DNA of 60,797 bases. It comes from an uncultured Clostridia bacterium (GTDB taxonomy: Bacteria > Bacillota > Clostridia > TANB77 > CAG-508). The stretch spans positions 1 through 60,797 of the forward strand of contig CALYBE010000001.1 of NCBI GenBank assembly GCA_944393735.1, read 5' to 3'. This document shows, in pieces, positions 652 to 18,557 of the stretch (position 1 is its first letter; each line of letters begins with the position of its first letter). Under the pieces are notes generated by a model. The model did no database searches. It worked only from the letters and a program-made list of their open reading frames with translations, and was not told the DNA's origin. The position numbers and the translations under genes are program-made.

Positions 652-688
652 AAAAGCTGTTGTTATAATATGATGCAACAGCTTTTTA
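652..688 (+). terminator. Rho-independent terminator after sigA
   Basis: Inverted repeat AAAAGCTGTTG / CAACAGCTTTT followed by a T-rich tail. Confidence 0.6.
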
Positions 689-1540: not shown

Positions 1541-1550
1541 GGAATTTAAA

Positions 1551-3062
1551 TTGGGAGGAATAAAAAGAAGCGCTAAATCAGTTAGAGGAAAATTATTTCT
1601 TACACTATGTGTTGTAGTAATATCAATAATTCTATTCTTAATAATAGTAAACAGCTTTGTATTAGAAAAATATTATCAATTAACAAAAAGTAATACATTA
1701 AAATCTGTATATAACACAATAAATTTATACTATAGCGGAAAAATACAAGTAGACAGTATTCCAGATGAATTAGATAAAATATCTATAAGAAACGATTTTG
1801 ATATTATAGTAAAAGATGAAAATGGTGTAGCAATTTATTTATCTAATAAAGACTTTTTATTAAATATAAGAAAAATTATAGACTTTTGGGGAATGGATAG
1901 AATGCAAGAGTCAAGTTTAGTTGAAGAAACAGACAAAATAGAAATAAGAAAAATTAGTGATACAGAAACTAAAATAACATATATGTTATTAACAGGAAAA
2001 CTAGACAATGGATATATAACATATATTAGGCTACCTTTATCCTCAATTGAAGAAAGTGTAAGAATATCTAACAGGTTTTTATACTTAATTGCTAGTATTG
2101 TAATAATTGTAGGTGGATTTGCTATAACATATATATCTAAGCAGTTCAGTAAACCTATTTCAGAAATAAGTGCAATTGCAAAGAAAATGTCTAATTTAGA
2201 TTTTAGCCAAAAATACATGGTAACAGATGATGATGAAATAAATGAACTTGGCGAAAGTATAAATGTTATGTCAGAAAAACTAGAGAAAACTATAAATCAA
2301 TTAAGAAATACAAATATAGAGCTTGAAAGAGATATTGAGAAAAAATCAAAAATAGATGAAATGAGGAAAAGCTTTATTTCTGACGTTTCACATGAATTAA
2401 AAACTCCAATTGCATTGATTCAAGGATATAGTGAAGGTCTTGTCGAAAATGTAAACTCTGATCCAGAAAGTAGAAAATTTTATGCTGAAGTAATTTTAGA
2501 TGAAGCAGGAAAAATGGACAAGCTTGTAAGACAGTTAATTGAGTTAACTAGACTTGAATATGAAAAAAGAGAATTCAATAATAGAATATTTAATATTGTA
2601 GAATTGGAAAAAGAAATTGTTAGAAGCTCTAAAGTTATGCTAGAAGAAAAAAATGTACAAGTTGAGTTTGATACAGAAGAGAATATCAATGTATTTGCAG
2701 ATGATTTTTATATTAGTCAAATTATAACCAACTACTTAACTAATGCAATTAAACATGTTAAAGAGATTAACGGAGAGAAGCATATAAAAATAACTAATAC
2801 TGTTTTACCAGAAAAAAATAAGGTTAAAATAACTGTATTTAATACAGGTGATAATATTGCTAAAGAAAATTTATCTCGTATTTGGAATAGATTTTTCAAG
2901 GTAGATGAAGCTCGTAATAGAGAAGATGGTGGAAGCGGAATAGGTCTTTCTATTGTTAGAGCTATAATGAATAATTATGGAAATGACTTTGGGGTTGAAA
3001 ACAAAGTTGATGGAGTTGAGTTCTATTTTGAAGTTGATATGACTGATGCAAAGAAAGAATAA
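1551..3062 (+). CDS. Membrane sensor histidine kinase, cognate to the preceding regulator
   Basis: N-terminal TM segments are present. H-box SHELKTPI and ATP-binding boxes (NAIKH, GGSGIGLSIV) are present. TTG start lies 5 nt after GAGGA and 10 nt after the regulator gene. Confidence 0.9.
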   Translation: MGGIKRSAKSVRGKLFLTLCVVVISIILFLIIVNSFVLEKYYQLTKSNTLKSVYNTINLYYSGKIQVDSIPDELDKISIRNDFDIIVKDENGVAIYLSNKDFLLNIRKIIDFWGMDRMQESSLVEETDKIEIRKISDTETKITYMLLTGKLDNGYITYIRLPLSSIEESVRISNRFLYLIASIVIIVGGFAITYISKQFSKPISEISAIAKKMSNLDFSQKYMVTDDDEINELGESINVMSEKLEKTINQLRNTNIELERDIEKKSKIDEMRKSFISDVSHELKTPIALIQGYSEGLVENVNSDPESRKFYAEVILDEAGKMDKLVRQLIELTRLEYEKREFNNRIFNIVELEKEIVRSSKVMLEEKNVQVEFDTEENINVFADDFYISQIITNYLTNAIKHVKEINGEKHIKITNTVLPEKNKVKITVFNTGDNIAKENLSRIWNRFFKVDEARNREDGGSGIGLSIVRAIMNNYGNDFGVENKVDGVEFYFEVDMTDAKKE

Positions 3063-3146
3063 AATTTAATAATAAAGAGACTATCGTGAAAGTTGCGTAA
3101 ATCGGAAGGGAACCCGATATACACAACTTTTTCTATACTCTCAAAA

Positions 3147-3178
3147 TAAAAACGAGATTTTTTAAAATCTCGTTTTTT
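3147..3178. terminator. Bidirectional hairpin terminator (kinase gene on +; ancestral tRNA-Gln terminator on -)
   Basis: AACGAGATTTT / AAAATCTCGTT stem is flanked by an A-run and a T-run, and abuts the left island repeat. Confidence 0.55.
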
Positions 3179-3190
3179 GGTTGGGCTGGC
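3174..3190. repeat. Island-distal att direct repeat (attL-like)
   Basis: TTTTTGGTTGGGCTGGC is identical to 16494-16510. It duplicates the last 13 nt of tRNA-Gln plus 4 nt. Confidence 0.85.
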
Positions 3191-3278
3191 AAAATATCTT
3201 TTGTAGGAAATGCTCGAATTTTCAGGATTTATAGGTTTTAACTTAAGTTTTTCATGCAATTTTCATGCGATTTAAAAA

Positions 3279-4739
3279 TTAAGATGTTTTTTCTTGAAAT
3301 AAATTATATTTGTTTTTTATTTTGTCTAGAACTTCATATAGTACTTTTTTATCTAAGTCATCCAAACAAGTATTGCTAACTGATTGTTTTAGTTTATTAA
3401 GTTCTATACTAATTATTTTATCTTGATCTAGTTTTGAATAATTTAATCCTAATTCATTTAAATAATTTTCACTTTTTGCATTGTATTTGTTTTTGTATTC
3501 TGCAAAAGCATCAAAATAAGTATTTAAAGTCACTTCAATATCTTTGTGGCCTAATAGACACTTAAGAACCTCGGCTGGCATACCTGATTCTATTTTTCTT
3601 GTAGCATATGTATGTCTTAAAACATATTGAGTTTCATTCCAACCACTTCCTATATTATTTTTTTTACAAAATCTTTTAAAAGCACTATTAGAAGCGGAAA
3701 TTGATATAAAATTATTATCCCAAAATAAAAGATTATATTTATTTTCTTTCCTTTGAGCTAATAGTTCTTTGATTATTAATTTAGCATCATTATTTAAGTC
3801 AATAATTCTATCGCCAGAATATGTTTTAGTAGTATCTCCTAATATTGTTTTTCCATTCTTATCGTGTGTTAGTGTATTTTTAATATATATTTTATTTTCT
3901 GCAAAGTTAATATTGTTAATGTCAATAGCATAAACCTCTCCTGGTCTTAGTCCTAAATTTAACATTAATAGCCATGCTAATTTATATTTATTACTAGTTT
4001 CTTTTTTTATAGATTCAATAAATTTTTTTTGCTCAGATATAGTAAAAGCTTTTACTTTTTCAGTTTTGCATTTTGATTTTGGCCTTCTAAATTCATCTTT
4101 ATCATCTAGCGGATTTAAAATCAAAATTTTTTTTCGAACAGCTTTTATAAATGTAGCATTGAGTAAACCATAATCTTTTCCTATTACTGAATCAGAATAA
4201 GATGTTATATATTTTAAATATTTGTGTATATCGTTGTCTGTTACTTCCTGAGCTGGTTTGTTCATAAATTCATGTTGTCCTAATCTATTTAATTTGGCTA
4301 AATTTGCAATATATGAATTATCAGTAGTGATATTTTTGTCATGTCTATCTTCTACAATTGATTTAGCAATATCATATAAAGTTATTTTTGATTTATCAAC
4401 AATGGCGTCATTATTAATTTTATTTATTGTGTCTAAATTGTTTTTTGCAGCATCTTTTTTCTTTTTTGCGTATTTGGGTGTGGTTCTAGTGCCATCCTTT
4501 TTAGTTGCTTGGCTTACGCTTCTTTCATAAATATAATATCTATCACAATATTTTAAACAATTAATGCACTGTTTACATTTGTCACATAGTTTTTTACAAT
4601 CTTCTCTATTGTTGCACAAATTTTTGTTATTACAATTTTTACAAGTTTCACATATTTCGAGATTTGAATTATCTTTCTTTATTTTTTGAATAAATTCGTA
4701 AACGGAACCTTCTCCATTAGATCTTCTTCCTTTTTTCAT
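3279..4739 (-). CDS. Tyrosine site-specific recombinase (phage-type integrase) with a Cys-rich N-terminal insert
   Basis: Catalytic signatures are present: LGLRPGEV, YVLRHTYATR, LLGHKDIEVTLNTY. The N-terminus RRSNGEGSVYEF is typical of Firmicute integrases. There are 13 Cys between residues ~31 and 66. Confidence 0.9.
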   Translation of the reverse strand: MKKGRRSNGEGSVYEFIQKIKKDNSNLEICETCKNCNNKNLCNNREDCKKLCDKCKQCINCLKYCDRYYIYERSVSQATKKDGTRTTPKYAKKKKDAAKNNLDTINKINNDAIVDKSKITLYDIAKSIVEDRHDKNITTDNSYIANLAKLNRLGQHEFMNKPAQEVTDNDIHKYLKYITSYSDSVIGKDYGLLNATFIKAVRKKILILNPLDDKDEFRRPKSKCKTEKVKAFTISEQKKFIESIKKETSNKYKLAWLLMLNLGLRPGEVYAIDINNINFAENKIYIKNTLTHDKNGKTILGDTTKTYSGDRIIDLNNDAKLIIKELLAQRKENKYNLLFWDNNFISISASNSAFKRFCKKNNIGSGWNETQYVLRHTYATRKIESGMPAEVLKCLLGHKDIEVTLNTYFDAFAEYKNKYNAKSENYLNELGLNYSKLDQDKIISIELNKLKQSVSNTCLDDLDKKVLYEVLDKIKNKYNLFQEKTS

Positions 4740-4926
4740 AAATAACCTTCTTTCTAATATTTTTACTGTTCAAAAAAATAAAAAAGTTGAACTTTTAATA
4801 AAAAAACAGGTTACCTGTGGATAAGTGGTTCGTAAAATTGAATATTTACCATTTATTACCAGATAATATCTATAAAATCATAAAAATTTAAATTTACTCT
4901 TTTTTACTGAAAAATTAATCATTTTA

Positions 4927-4955
4927 TTGACAGTTTTTTTTTTTTTTATTATAAT
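4927..4955 (+). promoter_or_regulatory. Consensus sigma-A promoter (TTGACA-17-TATAAT) with a T14 tract in the spacer
   Basis: TTGACA at 4927-4932, TATAAT at 4950-4955, and a 17-nt spacer that includes T14 (4934-4947). It lies ~55 nt upstream of the first T7SS-locus gene. Confidence 0.65.
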
Positions 4956-5007
4956 GAACTCAAAGTTATCATTATAAATGATAATAAATTATAAAGGAGG
5001 AAAAAAT

Positions 5008-5622
5008 ATGGCACAGATTATGAATGTTGATTATGAAGCAATGCCAAATCAAGCAAAACAAATGAGACAATATGCTATTGAACTTAATAATGAATTTAAA
5101 ACAGCATACTCATATATAGGAGATATGCATAACTCATGGTATGGAGTTAGATACAATGAGTTAGTAAGAGATTTTAATAACTTAGCACCACAGGTAAATA
5201 AACTATTAAATTTAGTAGTTACAGAAATTCCATTTGCATTAGAAACAATTGCAAATAATTATTCACAAGCAGATAGAGGACAAAATGCAACAACAGCAGA
5301 AGAAACAACACCAAATAGAATTGAAGATTTACCAATAATAAATGATGTGGGAATGAGATTTATAACTGAAGATGTTGCTAACACACAAAGAGCTGTAACA
5401 GAAAAATTTGAATCAGTAAAAGAATTAATGAACAAAATTGAAGCAGAATATGGAAAAGTACAATGGCAAAGTGAAGCTTCAGATAGTTTTAAGGCAAGGT
5501 TTACACAATTAAAGAATGAAATAATGTCATCAATAGAGAATATAAACATACAATTCACAAAATTAATGAATCAAACAAAACAAGATATTGAAACAACAGA
5601 AAAATCAAATACTGTTCAATAA
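5008..5622 (+). CDS. Tandem WXG100-like protein (putative T7SS substrate), paralog 1
   Basis: AAGGAGG lies 8 nt upstream of ATG 5008. The first half has W44-Y-G46 in a helix-turn-helix context. The second half has W153-Q-S followed by ASDSFKARF, a WXG100-like pattern. The protein is 204 aa, about twice the WXG100 size. Confidence 0.6.
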   Translation: MAQIMNVDYEAMPNQAKQMRQYAIELNNEFKTAYSYIGDMHNSWYGVRYNELVRDFNNLAPQVNKLLNLVVTEIPFALETIANNYSQADRGQNATTAEETTPNRIEDLPIINDVGMRFITEDVANTQRAVTEKFESVKELMNKIEAEYGKVQWQSEASDSFKARFTQLKNEIMSSIENINIQFTKLMNQTKQDIETTEKSNTVQ

Positions 5623-5625
5623 TAT

Positions 5626-5693
5626 GAAAGCACATATATGTGCTTTCTAAAGTAATATACAAATATTATTTTAGAAAGCATATATATGCTTTG
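5626..5693 (+). terminator. Two similar tandem hairpins after the WXG-like gene (attenuator or partial terminator)
   Basis: GAAAGCACATATATGTGCTTTC (5626-5647) and AAAGCATATATATGCTTT (5675-5693). Confidence 0.4.
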
Positions 5694-5721
5694 TTAGAAA
5701 AATTGAAAGGAGAATTTGACT

Positions 5722-6012
5722 ATGGAAAAAAGTTTTTTACCAATAGGTACAGTATTAAAATTAAAAGGGAGTAAAAAAAGATTAATGATAACAGGTTTTT
5801 TTCCAATTGAAAATGATAAAACAGAAGAAAATAAAAAAATGTGGGATTATAGTGGTTGTTTATATCCAGAAGGGATAATATCATCAAAAAACAATTTTTT
5901 ATTTAATCATAATCAAATAGATGAAGTTCAATTTATGGGATTTGTTGACGAAGAAGAAAAAAAATTTGAAGAAACAATGAAAAAAGCAATAGAAAAATTA
6001 TATAATAATTAA
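5722..6012 (+). CDS. DUF4176-like small protein (T7SSb-locus associated)
   Basis: The pattern LPIGTVLKLKGSKKRLMITG...WDYSGCLYPEG...FNHNQIDEVQFMGFVDEEE matches my recollection of the DUF4176 family. AAAGGAG lies 9 nt upstream of ATG 5722. Confidence 0.7.
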   Translation: MEKSFLPIGTVLKLKGSKKRLMITGFFPIENDKTEENKKMWDYSGCLYPEGIISSKNNFLFNHNQIDEVQFMGFVDEEEKKFEETMKKAIEKLYNN

Positions 6013-6031
6013 ACTAAGAGAGTGGAAAGTT

Positions 6032-9000
6032 ATGTTAGTAACACTAATTGGAAAAAATACTTTATATAAATTGAAATTACCAAATGAACATGATGGTAAT
6101 TATTGGATTAAAAATGATAATGAAACAAAGTTAGTTAATATTTTTGGAAGAAAAGATGAATGGCAAATATGTAGTAATGAACAAGTTAAAATATTGGCAC
6201 CAAAATCAATAACTTCTTTTAATATATCTAAGATAAAAGATGATCCAAAAAATATAATTAATAAAGTAGTGCTAAGAGAAGGAGGCATCTATTACTTAGC
6301 ATTAGATGCAGATCCTAATATTTTATTTATATTACTTTGTGAATCTATTTATGAAAGAAATTTTATACATTTACAAGTTACAGATTTTAAAAATATAACA
6401 ATTGGTAGAAGTCAAACGTGTGATATAGTTTATGATAATCCATTAATAGAACCATTACAAGCAAAAATTTTTTTGAATAATGAGAAATTGATGATTAAAA
6501 ACTTTGATACTAATTATGGAACTTTTTTAAATAATATACCAGTATCAAATAAGTTAAAACTACTTTTTTATGGTGAGATGATATTTATTATGGGATTAAG
6601 GATTGTAATTGTTGGAAAAAATATTTTTATAAACAATCCTTATAATAGAGTAACATACAATCATGAAAAATTTCAAATTATAAAAAATAATCATGAAATA
6701 ATTACTTCAATGGAAAAAAAAGATGAAAATGTAAAATTACTTTCAAAAGATGATTTTTTTACAAGAGCACCTAGGATAATTGGTAAGATTGAAAAGGAAA
6801 AGATAAAGATTGACCCTCCACCACAAAAGCAAGAAAAAAATGATAAACCATTAATATACATCATAGGACCAAGTATAGCAATAAGTATTGTTATGTTAAT
6901 GTCTTTGATATCAACAATAAGTGGTGCTTCAGGAGGAAATTCATCAAAAGCAAGAATAGTTATGTCAGTAATTACAATAGGTGCAATGTTAATAAGTATA
7001 ATACTTTTTCCAATATTAAACAATAAATATGAAAAAAAGAAAAAGAAAAAAAGAGAACAAAAAAGACAAAAAAAATATAAAGAATATATAGAAAAAAAAT
7101 TGGAACAAATAGATGATGTAATGCAAAAACAAAAGAATATTTTATTTGATGAATTTTTATCTTCAGAGGATTGTGCACAAATAATTTTGAATAAAGGCTC
7201 AAGACTTTGGGAGAGAAGAATAAATGATGATGATTTTCTTTCAATAAGAGTTGGATTAGGAAATGTACCATTAGAAGCTGATATAGAATATCCCAATAAA
7301 GAGTTTTCATTAGAAGAAGATAATTTGTTGGATTTAATAAAATATGTGGCAAATAAATCAAAATTGATTAAAAATGCTCCAATAGTAGTATCACTCACTT
7401 CTAAAAATATAGCAGCCTCAATCATAGAAAATGATGAAAGAAATACAGAAAAATTTATACAAAATTTAGTTATGCAATTAATAGCACTACATAGTTATGC
7501 GGATTTGAAAATAGTGTTTTTTTTAAAAAAAGGAAAACAAATAAAATGGGAACATATGCAAACGATTCCACACATTTGGGATAATCAAAGGCAGATAAGA
7601 TTTTGGGCAGATGACTATGAAGAAATGAAAGAAATATCAAGATATTTAGAGGTGGAATTTAATGAGAGAAAAAAATATGGAGATAAATTTGATTATAAAA
7701 CATTTTCTCCATACTATTTAATAATAACTGATGACTATAAAACAATTGCAAACTTAAAAATAGTTACAGAAATTTTAAGTATAAGAAAAAATATAGGGTT
7801 TAGTTTATTCTGTATAACTGATAATTTCATTAATTTACCTAATGAATGCCAATTATTTATAAGCATAGATGGAAATAAAGGGAAGATATTTGAAAACAAA
7901 ATAACAGAAACAACTCAAAATGAATTTTATTTTGATAATTCATTTACATTCTTTTTTGAAAATATGGGTCCAATATTATCGAATATACAAATAAGGGAAA
8001 ATACAACATCAAAATTTTCTTTACCAGAAAGTTATACATTTTTAGAAATGTATGATGCAGGAAGAATAGAACAATTAAATATATTACAGAAATGGAGAAC
8101 AAATGATTCAACTAAATCATTACAAGCACCTATAGGAATAGATATAAATGGTAATCAAATAGTATTAGATATACATGAAAAAGTACATGGACCACATGGC
8201 TTAATTGCTGGAAGTACCGGTTCTGGAAAGAGTGAATTAATAATAACTTATATACTGTCTTTAGCAGTAAATTATCATCCTAATGATGTTGAAATTATTT
8301 TAATAGATTATAAAGGAGGAGGACTATCAGGAGCTTTTCAAAAAGGAGATGTAAAGTTGCCTCATATAGTTGGAACAATTACAAATATAGATAAAGCAGG
8401 TTTACAAAGGTCACTTGTATCTATACAAAGTGAATTAAGAAGGAGACAAGTAAAATTTAATCAAGCACGAGAAAAAACAGATGAAGGAACAATTGATATA
8501 TATAAATATCAGAAATTATATCATGATGGACAGGTAAGTGAGCCAATACCACATTTATTAATAATTTGTGATGAATTTGCTGAATTAAAACAACAACAAC
8601 CAGATTTTATGGATGAATTAATGAGTGTCGCTAGAATAGGACGTAGTTTAGGTGTACACTTAATATTATCAACACAGAAACCAGCTGGTATAGTAAATGA
8701 CCAAATACGTAGTAATAGTAGATTTGAAATTTGTCTAAGAGTACAAGATAGGCAAGACAGTATTGATGTAATAAAAAGACCAGATGCAGCTGATATTAAA
8801 AATGCTGGACAGTTTTATATGTTAGTTGGAAATGATGAATATTTTACTTTTGGACTTTCTGCTTGGTCTGGAGCAAGTTATGAACCATCTGATATTATAA
8901 AGAAAAGTATAGATACTTCAATTAAATTTGTTTCTAATACAGGTTCTGTAATAAAAAAAATAGATGATAATCATAAAAAGGTTCCAATAAAGAAAAAAGA

Positions 9001-10612
9001 AGAACAATTAACAAATATTGTAAAATACATATATGAATTAGGAAAAAGTGAAAATATTAAGCTAAAACCATTATGGTTAGATACACTGCCAAATGTAATT
9101 TTATTAAATGAAATAAAGAAAAAGTATAATATAACTAAAAAAGCTGAAGATATAGTACCAGTGATTGGTGAATATGATGACCCATATAATCAAAGACAAG
9201 GTGTTGTGGAATTAAACTTTAAAAAGCAAGGTAATACAATTATATATGGAAATGCTGAAAGTGGTAAAGAGACTTTAATAAGTACAATGATATTTGATAT
9301 AATTTCAACATATGATGTAGATGAAGTACAATTATATTTATTAGATTTTGGTAGTGAAACATTAAAAATTTTTAATAATGCACCACATGTAGGAGACGTA
9401 GTTTTAAGTTTGGATTCAGAAAAAATAAGTAGATTATTTGAAATGCTTCAAAAAGAAATGAAAAGAAGAACAGAATTATTATCTAATTATGGTGGAGACA
9501 TAAAATTATATATAAAAGATACTAGAAATGCAATGCCACAAATTATAATTGTAATAAATAATTATGAAGGATTTGTAGAAAACTATGGTGAAAAATATGA
9601 TGATGTTTTACTTACTCTATGCAGAGAAGGTATAAAATATGGAATAATATTTGTATTATCAGTTAGTTCATATAACAGTATAAGATATAGATTATTACAG
9701 AATTTTAAGCAAAAAATAGCATTGCAATTGAATAATGAAGATGATTATAACAATATATTAGAAGGAATAAAAAAACAAAGACCATCACATATATTTGGTC
9801 GAGGTTTAATAAGATATGATGATATATATGAATTCCAAACAGCAACAATATGTAAAGCAGAAGAATGGAATTTATATGTAAGAAAAAAAATAGAAAAATT
9901 AAATGAAAAGTATACTAAAAAGGCTACCCCAATACCTGTATTACCAAAGAAAGTAGATATAAATGATATAAAAGAAAAAATAAAAAGTTTGGATAAATTA
10001 CCAATAGGTATATATAAATCAAATTTAAGTATAGCAACTTATGATTTTAAAAATAGTTTTATTAATATTATATCTGCAAAAAATACAGAGGTTGTTGCTG
10101 AATTTTTAATACATATTTATGAAATTTTAAAACTTATTGAAGATGTTAATATTGAAATATTTGATGGAGAAGGAATTATACGAAACAATTCAAATAATAT
10201 TAAACTTGAATATAAAAATTTTTTATTCAAAATGCAAAATAATCTAGATAAATCAAAATATAATGTATGTATAATTATTGGAATTGATAAGTTTTTAACA
10301 AGTATAGATAGTGATTTTATCCAAGATTTAAAAATAGCAGAAGAAACAAAAAAATATATATTTATTATTGCTGATAGTGTTTACAAACTAAAAAATCATG
10401 AATATGATGACTGGTATAAAAAATTTGTTACAAAAGATAAGGGAATTTGGATTGGAAATGGAATAAGTGATCAATATTTATTACATTTAAATTCAATTAA
10501 TAGAAATATTATAAATAATTGTGGAAATAGTTTTGGATATATTATTGAACAAGAAGAAGCAAAAATGATTAAGCTTGTAGGAATGAAAGATGTTGGTGAT
10601 GAAAATGAATAA
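6032..10612 (+). CDS. essC: T7SS EssC/YukB-type FtsK-SpoIIIE ATPase with N-terminal FHA-like domains
   Basis: The protein is 1526 aa. FHA-like segments are present (ITIGRSQTCDIVYDNP...GTFLNN). Two TM helices lie around aa 280-330. P-loop 1 is GSTGSGKS with Walker B LLIICDEFAEL. P-loop 2 is GNAESGKET. The third module is degenerate. Confidence 0.9.
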   Translation: MLVTLIGKNTLYKLKLPNEHDGNYWIKNDNETKLVNIFGRKDEWQICSNEQVKILAPKSITSFNISKIKDDPKNIINKVVLREGGIYYLALDADPNILFILLCESIYERNFIHLQVTDFKNITIGRSQTCDIVYDNPLIEPLQAKIFLNNEKLMIKNFDTNYGTFLNNIPVSNKLKLLFYGEMIFIMGLRIVIVGKNIFINNPYNRVTYNHEKFQIIKNNHEIITSMEKKDENVKLLSKDDFFTRAPRIIGKIEKEKIKIDPPPQKQEKNDKPLIYIIGPSIAISIVMLMSLISTISGASGGNSSKARIVMSVITIGAMLISIILFPILNNKYEKKKKKKREQKRQKKYKEYIEKKLEQIDDVMQKQKNILFDEFLSSEDCAQIILNKGSRLWERRINDDDFLSIRVGLGNVPLEADIEYPNKEFSLEEDNLLDLIKYVANKSKLIKNAPIVVSLTSKNIAASIIENDERNTEKFIQNLVMQLIALHSYADLKIVFFLKKGKQIKWEHMQTIPHIWDNQRQIRFWADDYEEMKEISRYLEVEFNERKKYGDKFDYKTFSPYYLIITDDYKTIANLKIVTEILSIRKNIGFSLFCITDNFINLPNECQLFISIDGNKGKIFENKITETTQNEFYFDNSFTFFFENMGPILSNIQIRENTTSKFSLPESYTFLEMYDAGRIEQLNILQKWRTNDSTKSLQAPIGIDINGNQIVLDIHEKVHGPHGLIAGSTGSGKSELIITYILSLAVNYHPNDVEIILIDYKGGGLSGAFQKGDVKLPHIVGTITNIDKAGLQRSLVSIQSELRRRQVKFNQAREKTDEGTIDIYKYQKLYHDGQVSEPIPHLLIICDEFAELKQQQPDFMDELMSVARIGRSLGVHLILSTQKPAGIVNDQIRSNSRFEICLRVQDRQDSIDVIKRPDAADIKNAGQFYMLVGNDEYFTFGLSAWSGASYEPSDIIKKSIDTSIKFVSNTGSVIKKIDDNHKKVPIKKKEEQLTNIVKYIYELGKSENIKLKPLWLDTLPNVILLNEIKKKYNITKKAEDIVPVIGEYDDPYNQRQGVVELNFKKQGNTIIYGNAESGKETLISTMIFDIISTYDVDEVQLYLLDFGSETLKIFNNAPHVGDVVLSLDSEKISRLFEMLQKEMKRRTELLSNYGGDIKLYIKDTRNAMPQIIIVINNYEGFVENYGEKYDDVLLTLCREGIKYGIIFVLSVSSYNSIRYRLLQNFKQKIALQLNNEDDYNNILEGIKKQRPSHIFGRGLIRYDDIYEFQTATICKAEEWNLYVRKKIEKLNEKYTKKATPIPVLPKKVDINDIKEKIKSLDKLPIGIYKSNLSIATYDFKNSFINIISAKNTEVVAEFLIHIYEILKLIEDVNIEIFDGEGIIRNNSNNIKLEYKNFLFKMQNNLDKSKYNVCIIIGIDKFLTSIDSDFIQDLKIAEETKKYIFIIADSVYKLKNHEYDDWYKKFVTKDKGIWIGNGISDQYLLHLNSINRNIINNCGNSFGYIIEQEEAKMIKLVGMKDVGDENE

Positions 10613-10856
10613 AGTATTAGTAAAAGTATATGTACCTATGTTAGAAGAAATTTATGATGTATGGATTCCTACTAATAAAAAAGTATATGAAATTATAGTA
10701 TTATTGGTGAAAGCGATTAAAGATTTAAGTGAAAAATGTTATAATCCAAAAGAATTCCCAACATTATATGATAAAATAACAGGAAATGAATTCGATTTAA
10801 ATTTATTATTAAATGATACAACAATAAAGAATGGAACAGAATTGGTTTTAATATAA
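10605..10856 (+). CDS. esaB: YukD/EsaB-like small ubiquitin-fold T7SS protein
   Basis: The 83-aa product overlaps the essC stop by 8 nt. Position, size and N-terminal beta-strand pattern (VLVKVYVP...YDVWIP) fit YukD/EsaB. Confidence 0.6.
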   Translation: MNKVLVKVYVPMLEEIYDVWIPTNKKVYEIIVLLVKAIKDLSEKCYNPKEFPTLYDKITGNEFDLNLLLNDTTIKNGTELVLI

Positions 10857-10884
10857 TACCAAAGTATTTTGAAAGGAAGATATA

Positions 10885-11712
10885 ATGAAAACACTAAAAT
10901 ATGAAAATATTGATCAGAACAAAGACAGTTCCAATGTTAGTATAAATGAGTTGTTAAAAGAGGATAAGCAATTAGTTTCTTTTATTGGACCAAGACAGAG
11001 TGGAACATCATTTCTTATAGATAATATATCAAAAATATTAGCTAGAAGAGATATAGATGTTGCAATATTAGATTTGACATCAAATAGAGCATCATATTAT
11101 ATATATACAAAAAATGAAGAAAAATTAAAACAACAACAAAAAAACTGCCTAAAAAATATAGCAGAGGGTAATCCATTAGGAATTCAAGTTGAAAAAAACT
11201 TAGTAGTTTATACAGATCTACAACGAGAAAATGAAAAAGACTTAAAAGCAGAAAAAATATTAGAAGTATTGTTAAAAAAACATAAAATAATAATTTTAGA
11301 TACTGACTTTTCAACTGATGTAAGTTACTTTTTATATTCTAAAAAAATATATTTAGTGCAGACAATGGATGTTCTAACTATCCAATCATTTACAGAATTT
11401 TTATCTAAATTAAAATTGCAAAATGCTATAAATGATGAGAAAATAAGAGTTGTGTTAAATAAATTTATAAATTTAAATGGAATTACAGAAAAAGAATTAA
11501 TAAATAGATTAGCATTTTATAATGATCCGACAAAATCATATATGCAACAATTATTTGAGAAAAATGGATTAAAGTATACAACAATTCCATATAATCAGCT
11601 TGCATATGAAACATATTTACAATATATGGCAGAATATAAAATAACTAAAGTTGAATATATAATAGGTTTTAAAAACCAACTAGATGGTTTAGCAGATGAT
11701 GTTATAAGTTAA
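10885..11712 (+). CDS. ParA/MinD-fold (SIMIBI) protein with a degenerate Walker A
   Basis: VSFIGPRQSGTSFLIDNISKILA sits at the P-loop position and lacks both lysines. A Walker-B-like IIILDTD and VVLNKF are present. Confidence 0.55.
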   Translation: MKTLKYENIDQNKDSSNVSINELLKEDKQLVSFIGPRQSGTSFLIDNISKILARRDIDVAILDLTSNRASYYIYTKNEEKLKQQQKNCLKNIAEGNPLGIQVEKNLVVYTDLQRENEKDLKAEKILEVLLKKHKIIILDTDFSTDVSYFLYSKKIYLVQTMDVLTIQSFTEFLSKLKLQNAINDEKIRVVLNKFINLNGITEKELINRLAFYNDPTKSYMQQLFEKNGLKYTTIPYNQLAYETYLQYMAEYKITKVEYIIGFKNQLDGLADDVIS

Positions 11713-11751
11713 AATATTTAAATTAAAATTAAAAGGAAGGAATGATTCACA

Positions 11752-11922
11752 TTGGATAGTAAAACTTTTTATACAAATAGTATAAATAAAAAATTTACAA
11801 CAATTAGTGGTAAAGATAAATTAAAAGGAGAATTATTCACAAAACTTATTGAACAAACAAATGAAATGATTGATAATACAAATACAAATAAAGATAATAT
11901 ACTAAAAAATATAAAAAAATAG
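11752..11922 (+). CDS. Small 56-aa helical protein upstream of the effector (below the ORF-track size cut-off)
   Basis: A TTG start lies 11 nt after AAAAGGAAGG. The frame is open to TAG at 11920-11922, which overlaps the RBS of the next gene. Product: LDSKTFYTNSINKKFTTISGKDKLKGELFTKLIEQTNEMIDNTNTNKDNILKNIKK. Confidence 0.4.
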   Translation: MDSKTFYTNSINKKFTTISGKDKLKGELFTKLIEQTNEMIDNTNTNKDNILKNIKK

Positions 11923-11935
11923 TTAGGAGGAAAGT

Positions 11936-13759
11936 ATGTTTAGTTTTTGCGAAGATGTATTTAATGAATTATGTACAAGCTTAGAGAATACAATACAAGA
12001 AATAATAACAGAAGCTAATGATAGTAAAAGTAGCGCAGAGACATTAAAACAAGAAGCAGTAGCATTAAGAGAACAAGCAGCAGAATTAAGGGAACAAGCA
12101 GTAGCATTAAGAGAACAAGCTAAAGCATTAAGAGCACAAATTCCAGGTTTAAGGGAACAAGCAGCAGTACTTTATGCAAAGCAAGAATGGAAAACAGTAA
12201 CTTCAACAGTAACAAATTCAGAAACAGGAGAAGAAGAAACAGTAAGTGAAACTGTAAGAGATTATGAAGCAGAGGCCGCCAATCAAGCACAAGCAGCAGC
12301 ATTGGAATCACAAGCAAATGCACTAGAAGTACAAGCAGCCGAACTAGAATCACAAGCAAACTCAAAAGAAGCAGAAGCTACAGTAAAAGAAGCAGAAGCA
12401 ATAGCAAAAGAAGCAGAGGCTGCAGCACTAGAATCATTATCATCAGTTTTGACAGCATCATCTGAAGCAATAGGATCACAAATAAACACATTTAAGGAAG
12501 CAAAAGTAGAAGTAGAAAAAGCTACAAATGCAACAACATCATTATTAAATGAGGGATTAAATTTAATTTCTAGTTCTTTAAGTGCAATAAGTAATGCAAG
12601 TAATTTTATAATAGGTGATTGGGGAAATGGATTAGCTTCAAATATAATAGAGAATGTTGGGACTGAAATAAAGGGAGGAATTGAAAAACTCCAAGAAATG
12701 GCAAATGAAGTTATAGATAATGTAAAAATAGCTACAACAAATGTACAAGAATTTACTAGTGAAATTGGAAATTATATTATGGAAAGTCCTTTAGGACAAG
12801 CAGCAAAAGAATTTATAGATGGTTTTACAGAACAGAATGTAGAAAGTTTGATTGATCAAAATAGAGCGAAATTAGCTAATAATATTGTATCTGCACTAAC
12901 TTTTTTTGGAGCGGATCCGGAATTTATAGAGACTATCATGGGAGATTCTGTCACAATAGAGCTAACAAATTCAGTGGAAACATTTGAAGAAGCAAAAGCA
13001 GAAGCAAAAAGATTATATGTAGAATATATAAATGGATTAGATTATACTGATGAAGAAAAACAACAATTAATTAATAAATTTAATACTGCCGTGGACAATA
13101 TAGAAGTGTTATCTGATCAGGATATGGCTAAATTAATGGGTAATGGTGATAGTGGTTTTATAACATTGGCATTTTACAATGGACCATTGGATAAAGCATA
13201 TATAAGAGAATCATCAAAAATAGACGTAGCAACAATAATTCATGAAGTAGGAGGACATGGAACAGGAAGCATGATACCACCTGAATATCAAGGGTATCAT
13301 TACTTTGATGAAGAACTTCAAAGATATGTAAAATATGAAGGAAATTTTGAGGATGCAGATTGCTTTTTACTATATATGTCAACTTCAGATAAAAATGGAA
13401 CAATTTATGCTGGAATTGATGAGGCAACTACGGAATATTTTACAAGAAAAATATATGGAGAAGTAGAAAGTACCAGTGCATATAACGGAAGTACTGATAC
13501 ATTAGAAAGTATTACTGAATCAATGAAAGAATATTGTGGTATTGATGGTGAGAAATTATTGTATGAAACATATACTGGAGAAGATAAAGATGCATTTAAG
13601 AATGTATATAATGAAATTATGGGAGATGATACAGCTTATGATGAATTAACTAATATAATGTATTCTAATAATACACAAGGTGGTTCTGAATTTACTTTGG
13701 ATGTTGAAGCATTTGCATTTGATGTAAAATGCAAGCAATACAAACAACAGAAAAAATAA
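11936..13759 (+). CDS. Putative T7SS-secreted effector: coiled-coil repeat N-terminus with a C-terminal H-E-x-x-x-H domain
   Basis: The protein is 607 aa with no signal peptide or TM segment. It has Ala/Glu/Gln-rich heptad repeats, and HEVGGH at aa 436-441. It lies inside the T7SS-like locus, followed by a small gene. Confidence 0.5.
   Translation: MFSFCEDVFNELCTSLENTIQEIITEANDSKSSAETLKQEAVALREQAAELREQAVALREQAKALRAQIPGLREQAAVLYAKQEWKTVTSTVTNSETGEEETVSETVRDYEAEAANQAQAAALESQANALEVQAAELESQANSKEAEATVKEAEAIAKEAEAAALESLSSVLTASSEAIGSQINTFKEAKVEVEKATNATTSLLNEGLNLISSSLSAISNASNFIIGDWGNGLASNIIENVGTEIKGGIEKLQEMANEVIDNVKIATTNVQEFTSEIGNYIMESPLGQAAKEFIDGFTEQNVESLIDQNRAKLANNIVSALTFFGADPEFIETIMGDSVTIELTNSVETFEEAKAEAKRLYVEYINGLDYTDEEKQQLINKFNTAVDNIEVLSDQDMAKLMGNGDSGFITLAFYNGPLDKAYIRESSKIDVATIIHEVGGHGTGSMIPPEYQGYHYFDEELQRYVKYEGNFEDADCFLLYMSTSDKNGTIYAGIDEATTEYFTRKIYGEVESTSAYNGSTDTLESITESMKEYCGIDGEKLLYETYTGEDKDAFKNVYNEIMGDDTAYDELTNIMYSNNTQGGSEFTLDVEAFAFDVKCKQYKQQKK
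12056..12160 (+). repeat. Five tandem 21-nt (7-aa) coding repeats
   Basis: Units start at 12056, 12077, 12098, 12119 and 12140. Units 1 and 3 are identical (GCAGTAGCATTAAGAGAACAA). They encode A(V/A)(A/E)LREQ. Confidence 0.9.
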
Positions 13760-13782
13760 TGTGGAAAGGAGATTAAATTAAA

Positions 13783-14292
13783 ATGGAAAATAATACAGTA
13801 ATAGAAGACTTAACAAAAGAGTTTGTAAATACAATTCCAAATGATGAAGATAAACAAGAATTGAAACAAGCATTCGAAAAATATTTATATGAATATAAAA
13901 AAGTACTAGAAAAATCTAATATAAATTCAATTGATGATGCATTAAAATTCTCAGCAAATAAAATAATGAAATTGCCATTATATAGTAAAAAACAAAAGCT
14001 AATTGAAGACGAGAGTTTTAAAGAAATACAAAAAATTTCATCAAAAGCTTTTGAACTAGCAAAAAAAGTTGTAACAGGAAAAAAAGAAGATATAGATAAG
14101 AATTTGCTAGAAGAAATGAAAAATAAGCTAAAGATATGTTTAAATGATGTAAGAGAATTTAATAAGCAACAAGCAAGTATGCTAGTTTCTGAGGGGATAT
14201 TAGATTTAGTGTTTGTAGAAAATCCAAAAACACATTTAATAAGTATAAGATTGGGAAAAAATGCAATTAGGTTAAAAAATAATATGAATTAA
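13783..14292 (+). CDS. Hypothetical cytoplasmic helical protein; candidate immunity or chaperone partner of the effector
   Basis: The 169-aa product starts 23 nt after the effector stop. It has a GGAG RBS and no hydrophobic segments. No domain is recognised. Confidence 0.35.
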   Translation: MENNTVIEDLTKEFVNTIPNDEDKQELKQAFEKYLYEYKKVLEKSNINSIDDALKFSANKIMKLPLYSKKQKLIEDESFKEIQKISSKAFELAKKVVTGKKEDIDKNLLEEMKNKLKICLNDVREFNKQQASMLVSEGILDLVFVENPKTHLISIRLGKNAIRLKNNMN

Positions 14293-14341
14293 TAGGAAAG
14301 TAAAACATATTAAAAAAAAAGAATATAGAAGGAGGAAAACT

Positions 14342-14953
14342 ATGAGTCTAACGATAACAGTAGACTATGAGAATATACCAGGACAATCTAGTCAAGCGAG
14401 AAATATTGGAATGCAAATAAATGAAATACTATTAGATGTATATAGAAATGTAACTAATATGCATAATTTCTGGTATGGAAAAAGATATAATGATATTGTA
14501 ACAAATTTTAATAGTTTAGTGCCTCAACTAAATAACTTCTTAGAAATAGTTGTATCAGAAATTCCATATATATTTGAGAAAATAGTAAATAATTTCTCTG
14601 AGGTAGATATTAAACAAAATATGACAGTAGCTCAAAAAGAAAGTGTACAACAAATTCAAACAATTCCATTATCTACAGAAGTAGGAATGAAGTATATTCA
14701 AGGGGAAGTGGCTAATATACAAAATGCAATAGAATCAGATTTTCATGAAATAATAAGTCTAATGAGTGGATTAGAAAATACAATAAATCAAATAGGAATA
14801 GAATATGAAACAGCTGATAATTTTAAGTCAGAGTTTAAAAGTTTAGCTAATTCATTTAGACAATTTATAGAAAATCTAGAAAGACAATTTACAAATGCAA
14901 TGAATGTAAATAGAACTCAAATACAAAAAGCAGAGTCAGGAAATACAATTTAA
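14342..14953 (+). CDS. Tandem WXG100-like protein, paralog 2
   Basis: It has the same architecture and conserved blocks as 5008-5622 (MHNFWYGKRYNDIV..FN.L.PQLN...VVSEIPY...NNFSE.D). GGAGG RBS. Confidence 0.6.
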   Translation: MSLTITVDYENIPGQSSQARNIGMQINEILLDVYRNVTNMHNFWYGKRYNDIVTNFNSLVPQLNNFLEIVVSEIPYIFEKIVNNFSEVDIKQNMTVAQKESVQQIQTIPLSTEVGMKYIQGEVANIQNAIESDFHEIISLMSGLENTINQIGIEYETADNFKSEFKSLANSFRQFIENLERQFTNAMNVNRTQIQKAESGNTI

Positions 14954-15200
14954 TTAATAAGCAAAATAATTATACAAATAAATATCTGACTATAATTTAT
15001 CAACTGAAAGTCGTCAATTAACAAATGTAATTAGAAAACATATAATATATTAAATTAGAAGTGAAAGGAATGATAAAAATGATATTAAAAAATATAATCG
15101 TTAATTGTTATTGTAGGTAACAATACTCTGTCTATTGTAGACATGAGTATTAAAATTCATGCCTACAATAGAGATTATATTTTATTAAATAAATTATAAG

Positions 15201-15236
15201 ACTATGTGGACATATATGTTACACATAGTTTTTTTT
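15201..15236 (+). terminator. Hairpin plus T7 terminator/attenuator ahead of the cysK fragment
   Basis: ACTATGTG...CACATAGT stem followed by TTTTTTT. Confidence 0.5.
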
Positions 15237-15253
15237 GTTAGGAGGGATTTCAA

Positions 15254-15781
15254 ATGTTTGAAAAAAATGGAGTCATAGGAAATACACCAATGATAAAAAT
15301 AAATTATAAATACAATGGAAAAGAAAAAAGGATATTTACCAAATTAGAATATTTTAATTTAACAGGAAGTATAAAAGACAGAGTTGCATTTTATATAATT
15401 AATAATGCTAAAAAAAGAGGAATTTTGAAAGAGAAAATGCCAATAGTTGAAGCTACAAGTGGAAATACAGGAATAGCATTATCAGCATTAGGAAGTTATT
15501 ACAAACATCCAGTATATATCTTTATGCCAGATTGGGCTAGTAAAGAAAGAATTGAAATAATGAAAAGCTATGGTGCAAAAATATTTTTATTTTCAAGAGA
15601 AGATGGTGGATTCATAAGATGTGTAAATGAGGCAGAAAAATTGGCAAAAGAAATAAATGGATTTTGGGCTAATCAATTTTCTAATAAAGATAATTATCTG
15701 GCTCACTATGAAATAACAGGAGAAGAGATATTAAGACAGCTTCCAGAAAAAATAATAGTTGCAATTCATATATTAATGTAA
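15254..15781 (+). pseudogene. cysK: Truncated cysteine synthase (CysK/CysM family) fragment
   Basis: The N-terminal ~165 aa match the PLP cysteine synthase pattern (GNTPM, SIKDR, TSGNTGIALS). The frame ends at 175 aa, before the GTGGT loop; full-length enzymes are ~300 aa. Confidence 0.7.
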
Positions 15782-15822
15782 TATAATGATAGTGAATAAA
15801 GATGTTGAAAGGGGGAATTGCA

Positions 15823-16323
15823 ATGGAAGAAAATATAAAATACAAAAATGATATAGTACAAGATGCATATTATCTAATAAAAAAATTTAAAGATGATGGA
15901 AAAAGTGTAACTAATTTACAAATACAAAAATTAATGTATTTTTTTGAAGCATATTATATGAATGTATATGATGTTGATAAATTGTATGATTGTAATTTTT
16001 GTGCATGGGCATATGGACCTGTAGCAATTCCACTATATAAAGAGCTAAAGAAATTTGGAAATGACAATATAGAATTGACAGAAGAAAATATAGATAGTGC
16101 AGAAAAGGTTTTTGAAGACAAAAAGAAATTACTAGACCAAATATATAATGTATTTAAAGATGTACCAGCAATGACCCTTGTAGATTTTACACATATGACT
16201 GGTTCTCCGTGGAAAGAAGTGTGGGAAAGAAACGGAGAAAAAGTAGGATATGGTGCAAATACATATATAGACAAAATAAAAACGAAAGAATGGTTTAAAG
16301 ATGTCTTCCAGAAAAGAACATAA
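15823..16323 (+). CDS. Panacea (DUF4065, SocA/GepA-like) domain protein; putative antitoxin
   Basis: NLQIQKLMYFFEAYY...FCAWAYGPVAIPLYKELKKFG matches the DUF4065 core. GGGGG RBS lies 7 nt before ATG 15823. Confidence 0.7.
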   Translation: MEENIKYKNDIVQDAYYLIKKFKDDGKSVTNLQIQKLMYFFEAYYMNVYDVDKLYDCNFCAWAYGPVAIPLYKELKKFGNDNIELTEENIDSAEKVFEDKKKLLDQIYNVFKDVPAMTLVDFTHMTGSPWKEVWERNGEKVGYGANTYIDKIKTKEWFKDVFQKRT

Positions 16324-16420
16324 ATTTGAAATAACAATCCCACGAAATGAAACTATAAATGAAAATTTTAATGCAATAACTAATGCAATAGGAAAAAAAT
16401 TTTTAAATATTTCCAAATAA
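16301..16420 (+). CDS. 39-aa ORF overlapping the 3' end of the Panacea gene (speculative partner)
   Basis: ATG 16301 to TAA 16418-16420, product MSSRKEHKFEITIPRNETINENFNAITNAIGKKFLNISK. It overlaps the upstream gene by 23 nt and has no clear RBS. Confidence 0.2.
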   Translation: MSSRKEHKFEITIPRNETINENFNAITNAIGKKFLNISK

Positions 16421-16493
16421 ATACAGTTAAAATTGTGGAAAACTAGTGATGTCAACTATTCCTAGATAATAAAAAATACCCTCAAATAGGGTA

Positions 16494-16510
16494 TTTTTGG
16501 TTGGGCTGGC
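16494..16510. repeat. tRNA-proximal att direct repeat (attR-like)
   Basis: TTTTTGGTTGGGCTGGC is identical to 3174-3190 and overlaps the tRNA-Gln 3' end. Confidence 0.85.
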
Positions 16511-16572
16511 TAGATTCGAACTAGCGCATGTTAGAGTCAAAGTCTAATGCCTTACCGCTTGGCTACAGCCCA
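16498..16572 (-). tRNA. tRNA-Gln (anticodon UUG)
   Basis: The reverse complement UGGGCUGUAGCCAAGCGGUAAGGCAUUAGACUUUGACUCUAACAUGCGCUAGUUCGAAUCUAGCCAGCCCAACCA folds as a cloverleaf. Anticodon loop is CUUUGAC, T-loop is UUCGAAU, and CCA is encoded. Confidence 0.9.
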
Positions 16573-16660
16573 GTATTAAATATTTTTTGTGGATATAGTC
16601 CTCATACTGATGCAAAATTTGCAATATCGAACATTGAAATCCACTCTTTTTGGAAAGTTA

Positions 16661-16738
16661 TGGGGTGGAAGATGGGACTCGAACCCACGGTCTCCAGTGC
16701 CACAAACTGGCGCGTTAACCAACTACGCTACATCCACC
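16661..16738 (-). tRNA. tRNA-His (anticodon GUG) with extra G-1
   Basis: The reverse complement is GGUGGAUGUAGCGUAGUUGGUUAACGCGCCAGUUUGUGGCACUGGAGACCGUGGGUUCGAGUCCCAUCUUCCACCCCA. Anticodon loop is UUGUGGC, G-1 pairs with C73, and CCA is encoded. There is one U:U mismatch in the acceptor stem. Confidence 0.85.
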
Positions 16739-18442: not shown

Positions 18443-18557
18443 TTAAAACAATTGTAAAACATCAATTTAGCAACTGAAATAATTTCAGTTGCTAATAAAA
18501 ATTTATGAACTAATTTTTTACCTATGTTTATTTCTTAAGAAAGGAAAATAATAAATT

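Follow-up and report, generated by a model that had tools for sequence, protein, structure and literature searches.

What kind of element occupies the 3′ end of a glutamine tRNA gene in an uncultured Clostridia bacterium, and how did it obtain the genes it carries now? This question is raised by positions 3174–16510 of contig CALYBE010000001.1 (GenBank assembly GCA_944393735.1), of which positions 1–60,797, in the following called the window, were analyzed. An earlier note on this DNA had described the region as an integrase island at the 3′ end of tRNA-Gln(UUG) that is bounded by a direct repeat, and this reading is backed here by empty sites in related strains and by the tRNA-Gln-specific integrase family. 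The region is quite probably a prophage-derived chimeric integrative island, the interior of which was replaced by a slab of chromosomal DNA with a type VII secretion system (T7SS) operon and a truncated cysK gene. The island is a chimera of three parts: an integrase end (3191 to ~4910), the cargo (~4910 to 15754) and a right end (~15755 to 16493). Related contigs and loci are designated by L numbers where they have to be told apart.

Insertion at the tRNA-Gln gene

The borders of the island are formed by a 17-mer (TTTTTGGTTGGGCTGGC) that was found at only two sites of the 60.8-kb window with up to 2 mismatches allowed, both on the plus strand: at 3174–3190 (core of the left attachment site, attL; a partial duplicate of the tRNA-Gln 3′ end) and at 16494–16510 (attR core; overlapping the tRNA 3′ end). 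For such a two-copy 17-mer the chance expectation is 0.01, and two matches were obtained in 0 of 100 shuffles. The integration target, tRNA-Gln(UUG), is located on the minus strand at 16498–16572 (ARAGORN; anticodon ttg), with tRNA-His at 16661–16737 on the same strand (ARAGORN). The last 13 nt of tRNA-Gln (GCCAGCCCAACCA) are contained in the right repeat copy, and the tRNA is intact. A terminator hairpin accompanies each repeat copy. The native one (3149–3178) is chromosomal and serves as a bidirectional terminator for both the kinase gene and the tRNA operon. It is situated directly outside the island, extends into the T-run of the left repeat and is also present in the empty site of contig L038; folded as the tRNA-sense strand, hairpin and U-run reach −13.7 kcal/mol (z −5.6). 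The element-borne one (16472–16498, minus strand), which now follows tRNA-Gln, is absent from the empty site, folds with its U-run at −11.8 kcal/mol (z −4.0, same strand) and was independently called by a terminator scan (16498–16472). The earlier note had reported the perfect repeat in the same orientation, the unbroken tRNA with its 13 nt in the right copy, a tyrosine recombinase gene just inside the left copy (3279–4739) and a hairpin plus T-run at each repeat (3147–3178 and 16471–16498). The exact search, ARAGORN, the PF00589 and phrog_1 matches and the z-scores agree with this account, and the proposal that the element supplies a replacement tRNA 3′ end and terminator is supported as well.

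The T-run at the left junction has 6 T (window 3173–3179), and that of the empty site (L038 11623–11627) and of the right junction (16494–16498) has 5 T. The extra T could be due to homopolymer drift or could be a recombination footprint; the exact shared repeat nevertheless remains 17 bp.

The earlier note had proposed a search for an empty site in related genomes. Exact-protein look-ups with the response regulator, the integrase and the HI0933-like protein gave only island-bearing contigs, and the empty sites were reached via histidine kinase homologues of 99% and 85% identity. Seven contigs (L038–L040, L042–L045) from metagenome strains ~98% identical to the window have the exact empty site, with the order histidine kinase, hairpin, single 17-mer, tRNA-Gln, tRNA-His, HI0933 and no island. 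In BLAST comparisons, window 1–3190 corresponds to L038 8451–11639 at 98.1% and window 16494–26384 to L038 11623–21512 at 97.5% identity, and the two flank alignments on L038 share exactly the 17-mer as overlap. A sister species (kinase 85% identical; among its assemblies GCA_029782595.1; 6 contigs, L031–L036) likewise has kinase, tRNA-Gln, tRNA-His and HI0933 without the island. A junction census among the first 45 related loci yielded 20 attL-type, 9 attR-type, 7 attB-type and 0 attP-type junctions. Island-bearing contigs are 99.5–100% identical to the window, and empty-site contigs are ~2% diverged. The island was thus inserted site-specifically, with exact borders and a crossover inside the 17 bp. 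The restored attB is predicted to read ...AAAATCTCGTTTTTGGTTGGGCTGGCTAGATTCG... and the attP junction ...AATAGGGTATTTTTGGTTGGGCTGGCAAAATATC....

A chromosomal segment between phage-type ends

Positions 4910–15754 of the window match contigs L216, L234 and L238 at 98.7% over 10,846 bp, and the rest of the window has no match there. In this native locus, found by exact look-up of the 169-aa and later the 88-aa cargo protein, the same nine genes lie between a tetratricopeptide repeat (TPR) gene and pfkB on one side and a full-length cysK (321 aa) and an ATP-binding cassette (ABC) transporter on the opposite side, and an integrase gene is missing. Both joints of the segment are located at 8–10-bp A/T microhomologies. 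At the left joint (J1; 4910–4919, AAAAATTAAT), where the backbone of the integrase end meets the captured segment, a three-way alignment revealed that the window follows contig L015 up to 4918 and the native locus of L216, L234 and L238 from 4910. At the right joint (J2; 15750–15757, AAAAAATA), cysK meets a phage-type Panacea module; in the alignment of the window with L216 and the phages L202 and L203, cysK extends to ~15754 and the phage Panacea modules begin at ~15748. The truncated cysK gene (15254–15781, plus strand; PALP family, PF00291, profile positions 4–158 of 295) represents the 5′ half only: its homology to the full-length 321-aa cysK, of which the full gene is present in L216 and L234, stops at 15754. 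Since the slab was cut in the middle of cysK, the fragment is its cut edge. The interior of the island is therefore chromosomal in origin and joined via microhomologies. Accordingly, the claim of the earlier note that everything between the repeats is mobile cargo has to be narrowed, because the T7SS genes together with the cysK fragment form a 10.85-kb chromosomal segment with a native locus in related contigs; instead of having been carried by the integrase, this slab may have recombined into an already integrated element.

L015 is an 8-kb contig in which the backbone of kinase, attL and integrase is 99.8–99.9% identical to the window and is followed by other genes from window position 4918. 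These genes (L015 1–3378) code for an SIS-domain protein (phrog_14703), a kinase-like P-loop protein and a 440-aa protein instead of the T7SS. L015 may represent a progenitor or a sibling element.

The left end harbors a tyrosine integrase gene (3279–4739, minus strand; 486 aa) that is intact in this strain (Phage_integrase PF00589, E 7.5e-19; phrog_1 integrase, E 9e-46). In an alignment of 18 sequences (window and 17 homologues), R265, K305, R375, H398 and Y408 are invariant at catalytic-type positions, as are nine cysteines in the Cys-rich N-terminal domain. The region upstream of the gene (4740–4909) is the last part of the integrase-end backbone common to L015; nucleotide homology to prophage loci stops ~30 nt upstream of the integrase start codon. 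The closest integrases are 69–73% identical over their full length, and all those with retrievable context are prophage integrases, neighbored by genes for a cI-like repressor (helix-turn-helix and Peptidase_S24 domains), a cro-like protein, a terminase and functions in replication and recombination. Related integrases are also encoded on 37–44-kb IMG/VR viral contigs such as IMGVR_UViG_3300045988_164474; they were found with the 18-sequence alignment as query, and a scan of IMG/VR with the single integrase protein gave no relatives. In L123–L129, L132, L136 and L145, ~190 bp separate the integrase gene from an intact tRNA-Gln(UUG), behind which tRNA-His is located, and in L125, a phage-form contig without tRNA gene, attP consists of a hairpin and ~47 nt of the tRNA 3′ half. 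As related phages sit at tRNA-Gln(UUG), the target of the integrase family agrees with the insertion site in the window. Prophage L147 and viral contig L133 (integrase 69% identical) are collinear with the left end of the window in the alignment, with the order cro, cI, int, two ATTGCAT-type repeats, ~55 bp, a sense tRNA 3′-end-like sequence, hairpin and host genes.

Taken together, the island shares with these temperate phages of gut Clostridia (L123–L130, L145, L147; IMG/VR) the integrase with 69–73% identity and the same Cys-rich N-terminus, the tRNA-Gln(UUG) target (or the tRNA-like 3′ end in L147 and L133) and ATGCAA-type repeats after the integrase stop codon, and with L147 and L133 also the layout of integrase, arm, core and hairpin. 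In contrast to the phages, it lacks cI/cro as well as genes for replication, terminase, capsid, tail and lysis, and ~35 kb of phage body are replaced.

Putative arm-type integrase-binding repeats were recognized at both ends. Pairs of the motif ATGCRA with 11–12-bp spacing occur at 3254/3265 and at 16371/16383, each ~65–125 bp inside an island end; five such clusters are present in the 60.8-kb window, two of them at the inner ends of the island. The left pair belongs to repeats at 3246–3270 (plus strand; TTTTTCATGCAATTTTCATGCGA) between the core and the integrase stop codon, which are collinear with repeats of the prophages L147 and L133. The pair on the other arm, with ATGCAA at both positions, belongs to repeats at 16369–16390 (plus strand; TAATGCAATAACTAATGCAAT), which resemble a motif (AATGCAAT) present four times beside the 3′ end of the integrase gene in phage contig L210. 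By rarity and position, both pairs are candidate arm-type sites for the integrase.

The right end contains a Panacea (SocA-like) antitoxin gene (15802–16323, plus strand; PF13274 and phrog_1281) with a promoter-like site at 15759–15787. Nine IMG/VR viral contigs and the L021-type strains have it as an intact pair with a gene for a 211-aa protein, which has no Pfam or PHROG match; two of these nine contigs also carry an integrase gene 2–3 kb away. Identity to the nine phages amounts to 52–70% for the Panacea protein and 34–59% for the partner, and to 67–76% for the Panacea nucleotide sequence. The window, L028 and L029 have lost the partner gene by a deletion of ~743 bp, which leaves an orphan antitoxin; the deletion site is at window 16324–16400, and the partner gene at L021 8340–9180. 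The Panacea domain family of toxin-antitoxin modules has been described (PMC8832971). As in these modules, the antitoxin gene lies in a phage-derived context with the partner directly downstream in other strains and phages; in this strain, unlike in these modules, the antitoxin is present and the adjacent toxin gene absent.

History and mobility of the island

Tyrosine recombinases of the lambda and P4 type integrate site-specifically at the 3′ part of a tRNA gene, as is known for tRNA-targeting islands and cryptic prophages. A classification was reportedly published by K. P. Williams in Nucleic Acids Res in 2002. In the history proposed here, the integrase of a temperate phage from the tRNA-Gln(UUG)-targeting family would have recombined attP, consisting of the last 13 nt of the tRNA and the T-run, with the chromosomal attB, consisting of the acceptor-stem/CCA end of the tRNA and the following T-run, with the crossover within the 17 shared bases. 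The tRNA was rebuilt at attR with an element-supplied 3′ end and terminator, and a partial tRNA copy lies at attL beside the original terminator and the integrase gene. The phage body from upstream of the integrase gene to upstream of Panacea would have been swapped for the 10.85-kb slab comprising a T7SSb-like operon and the first half of cysK, with illegitimate recombination at the 8–10-bp A/T microhomologies joining it at both ends. The surviving phage remnants are the integrase gene and putative arm repeats at one end and the Panacea module, putative arm repeats and terminator at the other. Most likely, the replacement took place after the element sat at tRNA-Gln in this lineage, because L015 has the same integrated backbone and other genes from exactly J1. 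We infer the order of these events as well as the function of the arm sites and the role of the cargo.

Several observations weigh against this history. With respect to the native-locus contigs, the cargo is 1.3% diverged, and the true donor thus lies outside the sampled contigs. The argument for replacement in place hangs on L015, one 8-kb metagenome contig whose far end is unseen, and position and rarity are the whole basis of the arm-site assignment. The predicted 30-nt attP junction is absent from the JGI metagenome contigs and the 45 related loci, which leaves present-day excision unproven, and the island has no recognizable excisionase gene. Its GC (guanine plus cytosine) content is not distinct from that of the flanks. 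Finally, most phage relatives have a tRNA-proximal integrase gene convergent with the intact tRNA, whereas in the window it is tRNA-distal and the core is inverted relative to the integrase gene; as L147 and L133 show the distal layout too, both layouts exist in this phage family.

These two opposite attP layouts within one integrase family are represented by L123–L130, L132, L136 and L145 (tRNA-proximal) and by L133 and L147 (beside a partial tRNA copy). The attP of the tRNA-proximal type copies ~47 nt of the tRNA, and the window shares 13 nt and the T-run only. Nine phage relatives have the integrase in the opposite orientation beside the intact tRNA. Two other origins of the distal integrase, an inversion between palindromic hairpins and a crossover inside the hairpin, were rejected, as the hairpin is not duplicated and that of the right junction is different.

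Alternatively, the 13.3 kb could have been assembled in a donor cell, e.g. as the genome of a defective transducing phage with host DNA in place of its interior, and could have arrived as a unit that integrated via its own integrase. This course of events is possible, at a clearly lower probability than replacement in place. It would fit the intact integrase with repeats on both att arms, the precise borders and a length of 13.3 kb below that of the 37–44-kb viral contigs with related integrases, and the 1.3% divergence from the sampled native loci would allow for another strain as the source of the cargo. Against it stands L015 with the same backbone and site and other genes exactly from J1. 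A scan of one genome per GTDB species for EssC, the T7SS ATPase, yielded 77 related loci, and this integrase was found within 10 kb at 0 of them, nor did the combination occur among integrase relatives with examined context; in the sampled data, the link between integrase and T7SS is therefore lineage-specific. Moreover, all island copies belong to one clade with at least 99.5% identity.

By its features, the island resembles two known classes. The tyrosine recombinase with conserved residues, the direct repeats formed by the tRNA 3′ end next to an intact tRNA and the empty site in relatives are those of a tRNA island, and the integrase end collinear with L147 and L133, the residual phage Panacea module and the phage attachment site those of a defective or cryptic prophage. 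Pfam, NCBIfam and PHROGs searches with the called island genes (at least 56 aa) gave no terminase, capsid, tail, lysis or cI/cro gene, so it is not an intact prophage. No Pfam or NCBIfam match to a relaxase, oriT, coupling protein or type IV secretion system was obtained, so it is neither an integrative and conjugative element (ICE) nor an integrative and mobilizable element (IME); the sole FtsK-like ATPase is EssC. Among genes of phage satellites similar to phage-inducible chromosomal islands (PICI), only the integrase was found, and no repressor, primase/replication or packaging-redirection gene. The statement of the earlier note that the region is neither a prophage nor an ICE is hence true by gene content and misses that both ends are phage-derived, as revealed by L147 and L133 and by the nine IMG/VR phages. 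Judged by these sequence comparisons, the element is a gutted prophage.

With tRNA-targeting islands and cryptic prophages it has in common the integrase gene beside one att site, the direct repeat formed by the tRNA 3′ end, the tRNA rebuilt by element DNA, the empty site in relatives and the putative arm repeats flanking the core. It differs from them by its short core of 17 bp, which comprises only the acceptor/CCA end and the T-run (the attP of the related phage L125 copies ~47 nt), and by its interior, a captured chromosomal operon with identifiable joints in place of phage genes or classic foreign cargo.

Related strains provide evidence on the present state of the integrase. In L001–L006, L009 and L010, an insertion sequence (IS; DDE_Tnp_1) is located 29–45 bp upstream of the integrase start (window-equivalent 4768–4784), and the IS-bearing strains have three different added integrase lesions (equivalent intervals include window 3527–3699 and 4027–4767): a 174-bp in-frame deletion, by which residues ~348–405 including R375 and H398 are lost, a deletion of 4027–4767, and a frameshift. 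An unbroken integrase is encoded in the window and in L007, L008 and L011–L020, and all of these strains, with the integrase intact or broken, keep the T7SS cargo. This breakage of the integrase with the cargo retained suggests that the island is being domesticated. Its maintenance now seems to depend on the cargo and not on mobility, i.e. on EssC-driven WXG secretion and a probable toxin/immunity pair serving bacterial competition.

These findings also bear on whether the region could be a currently active mobilizable element, such as a phage satellite or an integrative mobilizable island that is excised and spread with help from a conjugative element or phage residing in the cell. In favor of this, the strain has an undamaged integrase and two identical att sites, and an excisionase could be provided by phages of the same family. 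Known satellites are of similar size. Nonetheless, an active element of this kind is improbable, with no repressor, primase/replication, packaging, relaxase or oriT-type gene in the island, no attP junction in the JGI metagenome contigs and the 45 loci, an integrase independently inactivated in several strains that keep the cargo, and no sign of the island in other species. Still less credence is given to a reversed polarity, with an ancestral island and empty sites that arose by precise integrase-mediated excision. Such an excision would leave an identical empty-site sequence, and both states occur in the same cohorts; however, the sister species is also empty, and the island contigs form one tight clade with the empty ones ~2% diverged. 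A reversed polarity would change the history only and leave the nature of the element unaffected. A chance or common repeat in ordinary conserved chromosome, for which the A/T-rich context alone could be cited, is refuted by the chance expectation of 0.01 and the exact empty sites.

The prophage-derived island with a replaced interior is thus known in kind, as a classic tRNA-integrating island or cryptic prophage. New here is a phage integration scaffold with a captured compact T7SS operon, the whole history of which is legible. It does not overturn current understanding and represents a clean, fully delimited case of the decay of a prophage to a genomic island and the capture of a whole chromosomal operon. 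Public metagenomes of one uncultured gut species contain the two att sites, both joints, the native locus of the donor type, the target site without insert and several stages of later decay. The island puts a strain-variable interbacterial weapon, the T7SS, on a potentially mobilizable platform.

The type VII secretion cargo

The T7SS operon is preceded by a predicted sigma-70 promoter (4927–4955, plus strand; TTGACA-17-TATAAT) with 12 of 12 consensus matches and the same sequence in L216, which by this identity arrived within the captured segment. All genes of the operon are encoded on the plus strand. The first (4978–5622) codes for a fused tandem-WXG100 protein of 214 aa from the first ATG, called as a gene of 204 aa from 5008. 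It matches PF06013 (E 4e-11; 43.4 versus a cut-off of 27.3) and TIGR03930 (48.4 versus a cut-off of 44.85), has a second ESAT-6-like stretch at 131–209 and is likely a secreted T7SS substrate or targeting factor. A second tandem-WXG100-like protein of 203 aa with WXG100/ESAT-6 matches is encoded at 14342–14953; the two paralogous genes share 72% nucleotide identity over a 164-bp stretch. Each of these paralogues of ~200 aa joins two WXG100/ESAT-6-like domains in one chain, a "heterodimer" with a covalent link that stands in for separate genes of the EsxA/EsxB type.

Downstream of the first WXG100 gene, a 98-aa DUF4176 protein is encoded (5716–6012; PF13780, E 6e-28), which belongs to the Ltc-type T7SS toxin chaperone family; DUF4176 proteins have recently been shown to be T7SSb toxin chaperones (PMC12478183). 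The subsequent gene (6032–10612) codes for EssC, the ATPase powering T7SSb, with Pfam FHA and FtsK_SpoIIIE domains and 1007.7 bits to the equivalog TIGR03928 (T7_EssCb_Firm; cut-off 778.4). An 88-aa protein (10590–10856) is probably a divergent YukD/EsaB-like ubiquitin-fold component; its full-length match to PF08817 is weak (E 0.019; 16.1 bits, below the cut-off of 27), and YukD is matched by 11 of the 24 members of its family (best E 0.0012). Its single-sequence AlphaFold2 (AF2) model was unusable (predicted local distance difference test, pLDDT, 54.8).

The 275-aa protein encoded at 10885–11712 has a confidently predicted ParA/MinD fold (AF2, pLDDT 80.3), with ParA, MinD, FlhG, FleN and BcsQ as top Foldseek matches (E 3e-9; TM score about 0.6). 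Throughout its family, the Walker-A lysine is replaced by threonine, while G35, G40 and T41 are conserved. The gene is conserved directly after those for EssC and the YukD-like protein; about 200 relatives from gut metagenomes were found, and the sole source name among those listed is "hypothetical protein". The protein is an accessory member of this T7SS subtype and could be a positioning or assembly factor.

A 56-aa protein (11752–11922), called as a gene in related contigs, is conserved in the cassette (43–63% identity in cassettes of related species). It is followed by a 607-aa protein with N-terminal coiled coil (11936–13759), a putative secreted effector or toxin by its variability: it is 32–37% identical between species versus about 70% for EssC. 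The local GC content rises to 0.34 at this gene, and the protein has no Pfam, NCBIfam or PDB match. The adjacent gene (13783–14292) codes for a 169-aa protein without a Pfam or NCBIfam match, which by its position is the putative immunity partner and accompanies the 607-aa gene in L046, L047 and L071. Gene order and variability point to a toxin/immunity pair. Searches of PDB sequences yielded no useful match for the 607-, 275- and 88-aa proteins.

EssB/YukC, EsaA/YueB and EssA/YueC were found neither in the island nor in the flanks of the native locus or the scanned cassettes of related species, nor were EssB, EsaA and EssA among the open reading frames of at least 150 aa across the rest of the window, which contains housekeeping genes and a nonribosomal peptide synthetase (NRPS). 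The system has in common with the T7SSb of Bacillota (ess of S. aureus, yuk of B. subtilis) the EssC equivalog, small proteins of the WXG100 type and the DUF4176 chaperone. A variable effector gene with a small putative immunity gene behind it is a further common feature, and the probable YukD/EsaB-like protein may be one as well. In contrast to T7SSb, it has no recognizable EssB/YukC, EsaA/YueB or EssA/YueC in the cluster or its flanks, its WXG100 proteins are tandem fusions, and it includes a conserved ParA/MinD-fold member with a degenerate Walker A motif.

The 77 related EssC loci originate from gut Clostridia, Bacilli, "Tenericutes" and Erysipelotrichaceae metagenome-assembled genomes (MAGs); the best match, 72% identical, is from Clostridium sp. 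CAG:245, and human-gut MAGs are represented. In the three loci with scanned flanks, the housekeeping genes around the cassette differ: it is flanked by MurT/GatD on one side and RlmN/PP2C/PknB on the other in L046 and by RelA_SpoT and a penicillin-binding protein (PBP) in L049, and in L052 the cassette is followed by TadA/DnaX/RecR. In L049 the cassette lies near tRNA-Gln; a shared origin with the island was rejected, as PBP, Ddl and S1 intervene and there is no integrase. The EssC family of these loci, with no adjacent EssB, EsaA or EssA in the loci scanned, may represent an undescribed compact T7SS subtype. To our knowledge, this gene set with a ParA/MinD-like member and no nearby EssB, EsaA or EssA has been uncharacterized so far. 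It appears widespread in gut Clostridia and Bacilli MAGs and may merit a separate study. A literature search gave no description of a T7SS located on a tRNA island of the phage type, which is weak evidence given the incomplete coverage.

A more far-reaching possibility, which we consider doubtful, is that a T7SS of an undescribed subtype widespread in gut Clostridia and Bacilli MAGs (EssC, YukD-like protein, ParA/MinD-like pseudo-ATPase, fused WXG100 proteins; no EssB, EsaA or EssA) rides on a phage integration module and can be moved by helper phages between strains of uncultured human-gut Clostridia. As the integrase and both att arms are intact in this strain, a helper phage of the same family could, if this were true, excise the island and thereby transfer a whole antibacterial weapon.

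An alternative cargo seen in L003 was set aside because of a possible assembly switch inside the 95%-identical WXG gene. In this contig (16014–20681), which may alternatively represent a real variant, the 95%-identical first WXG gene is followed by genes that include those for homologues of T7SS-adjacent proteins (L121, L055) and for a CHC2-primase/DUF3854 protein.

Outside the island, an IS200-like Y1 transposase gene is located at window 22065–22784, followed by ~980 bp (22863–23844) with a 267-aa minus-strand open reading frame without Pfam match; this stretch is present in the window and the empty-site strain L038 and absent from L021-type island strains. The NRPS gene (window 41236–51768) codes for a three-module protein of 3,510 aa with terminal reductase domain and is followed by a gene for a histidine kinase of the seven-transmembrane (7TM) type (51787–53601). 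The same pair is located just upstream of the T7SS cassette in the MAG locus L049.

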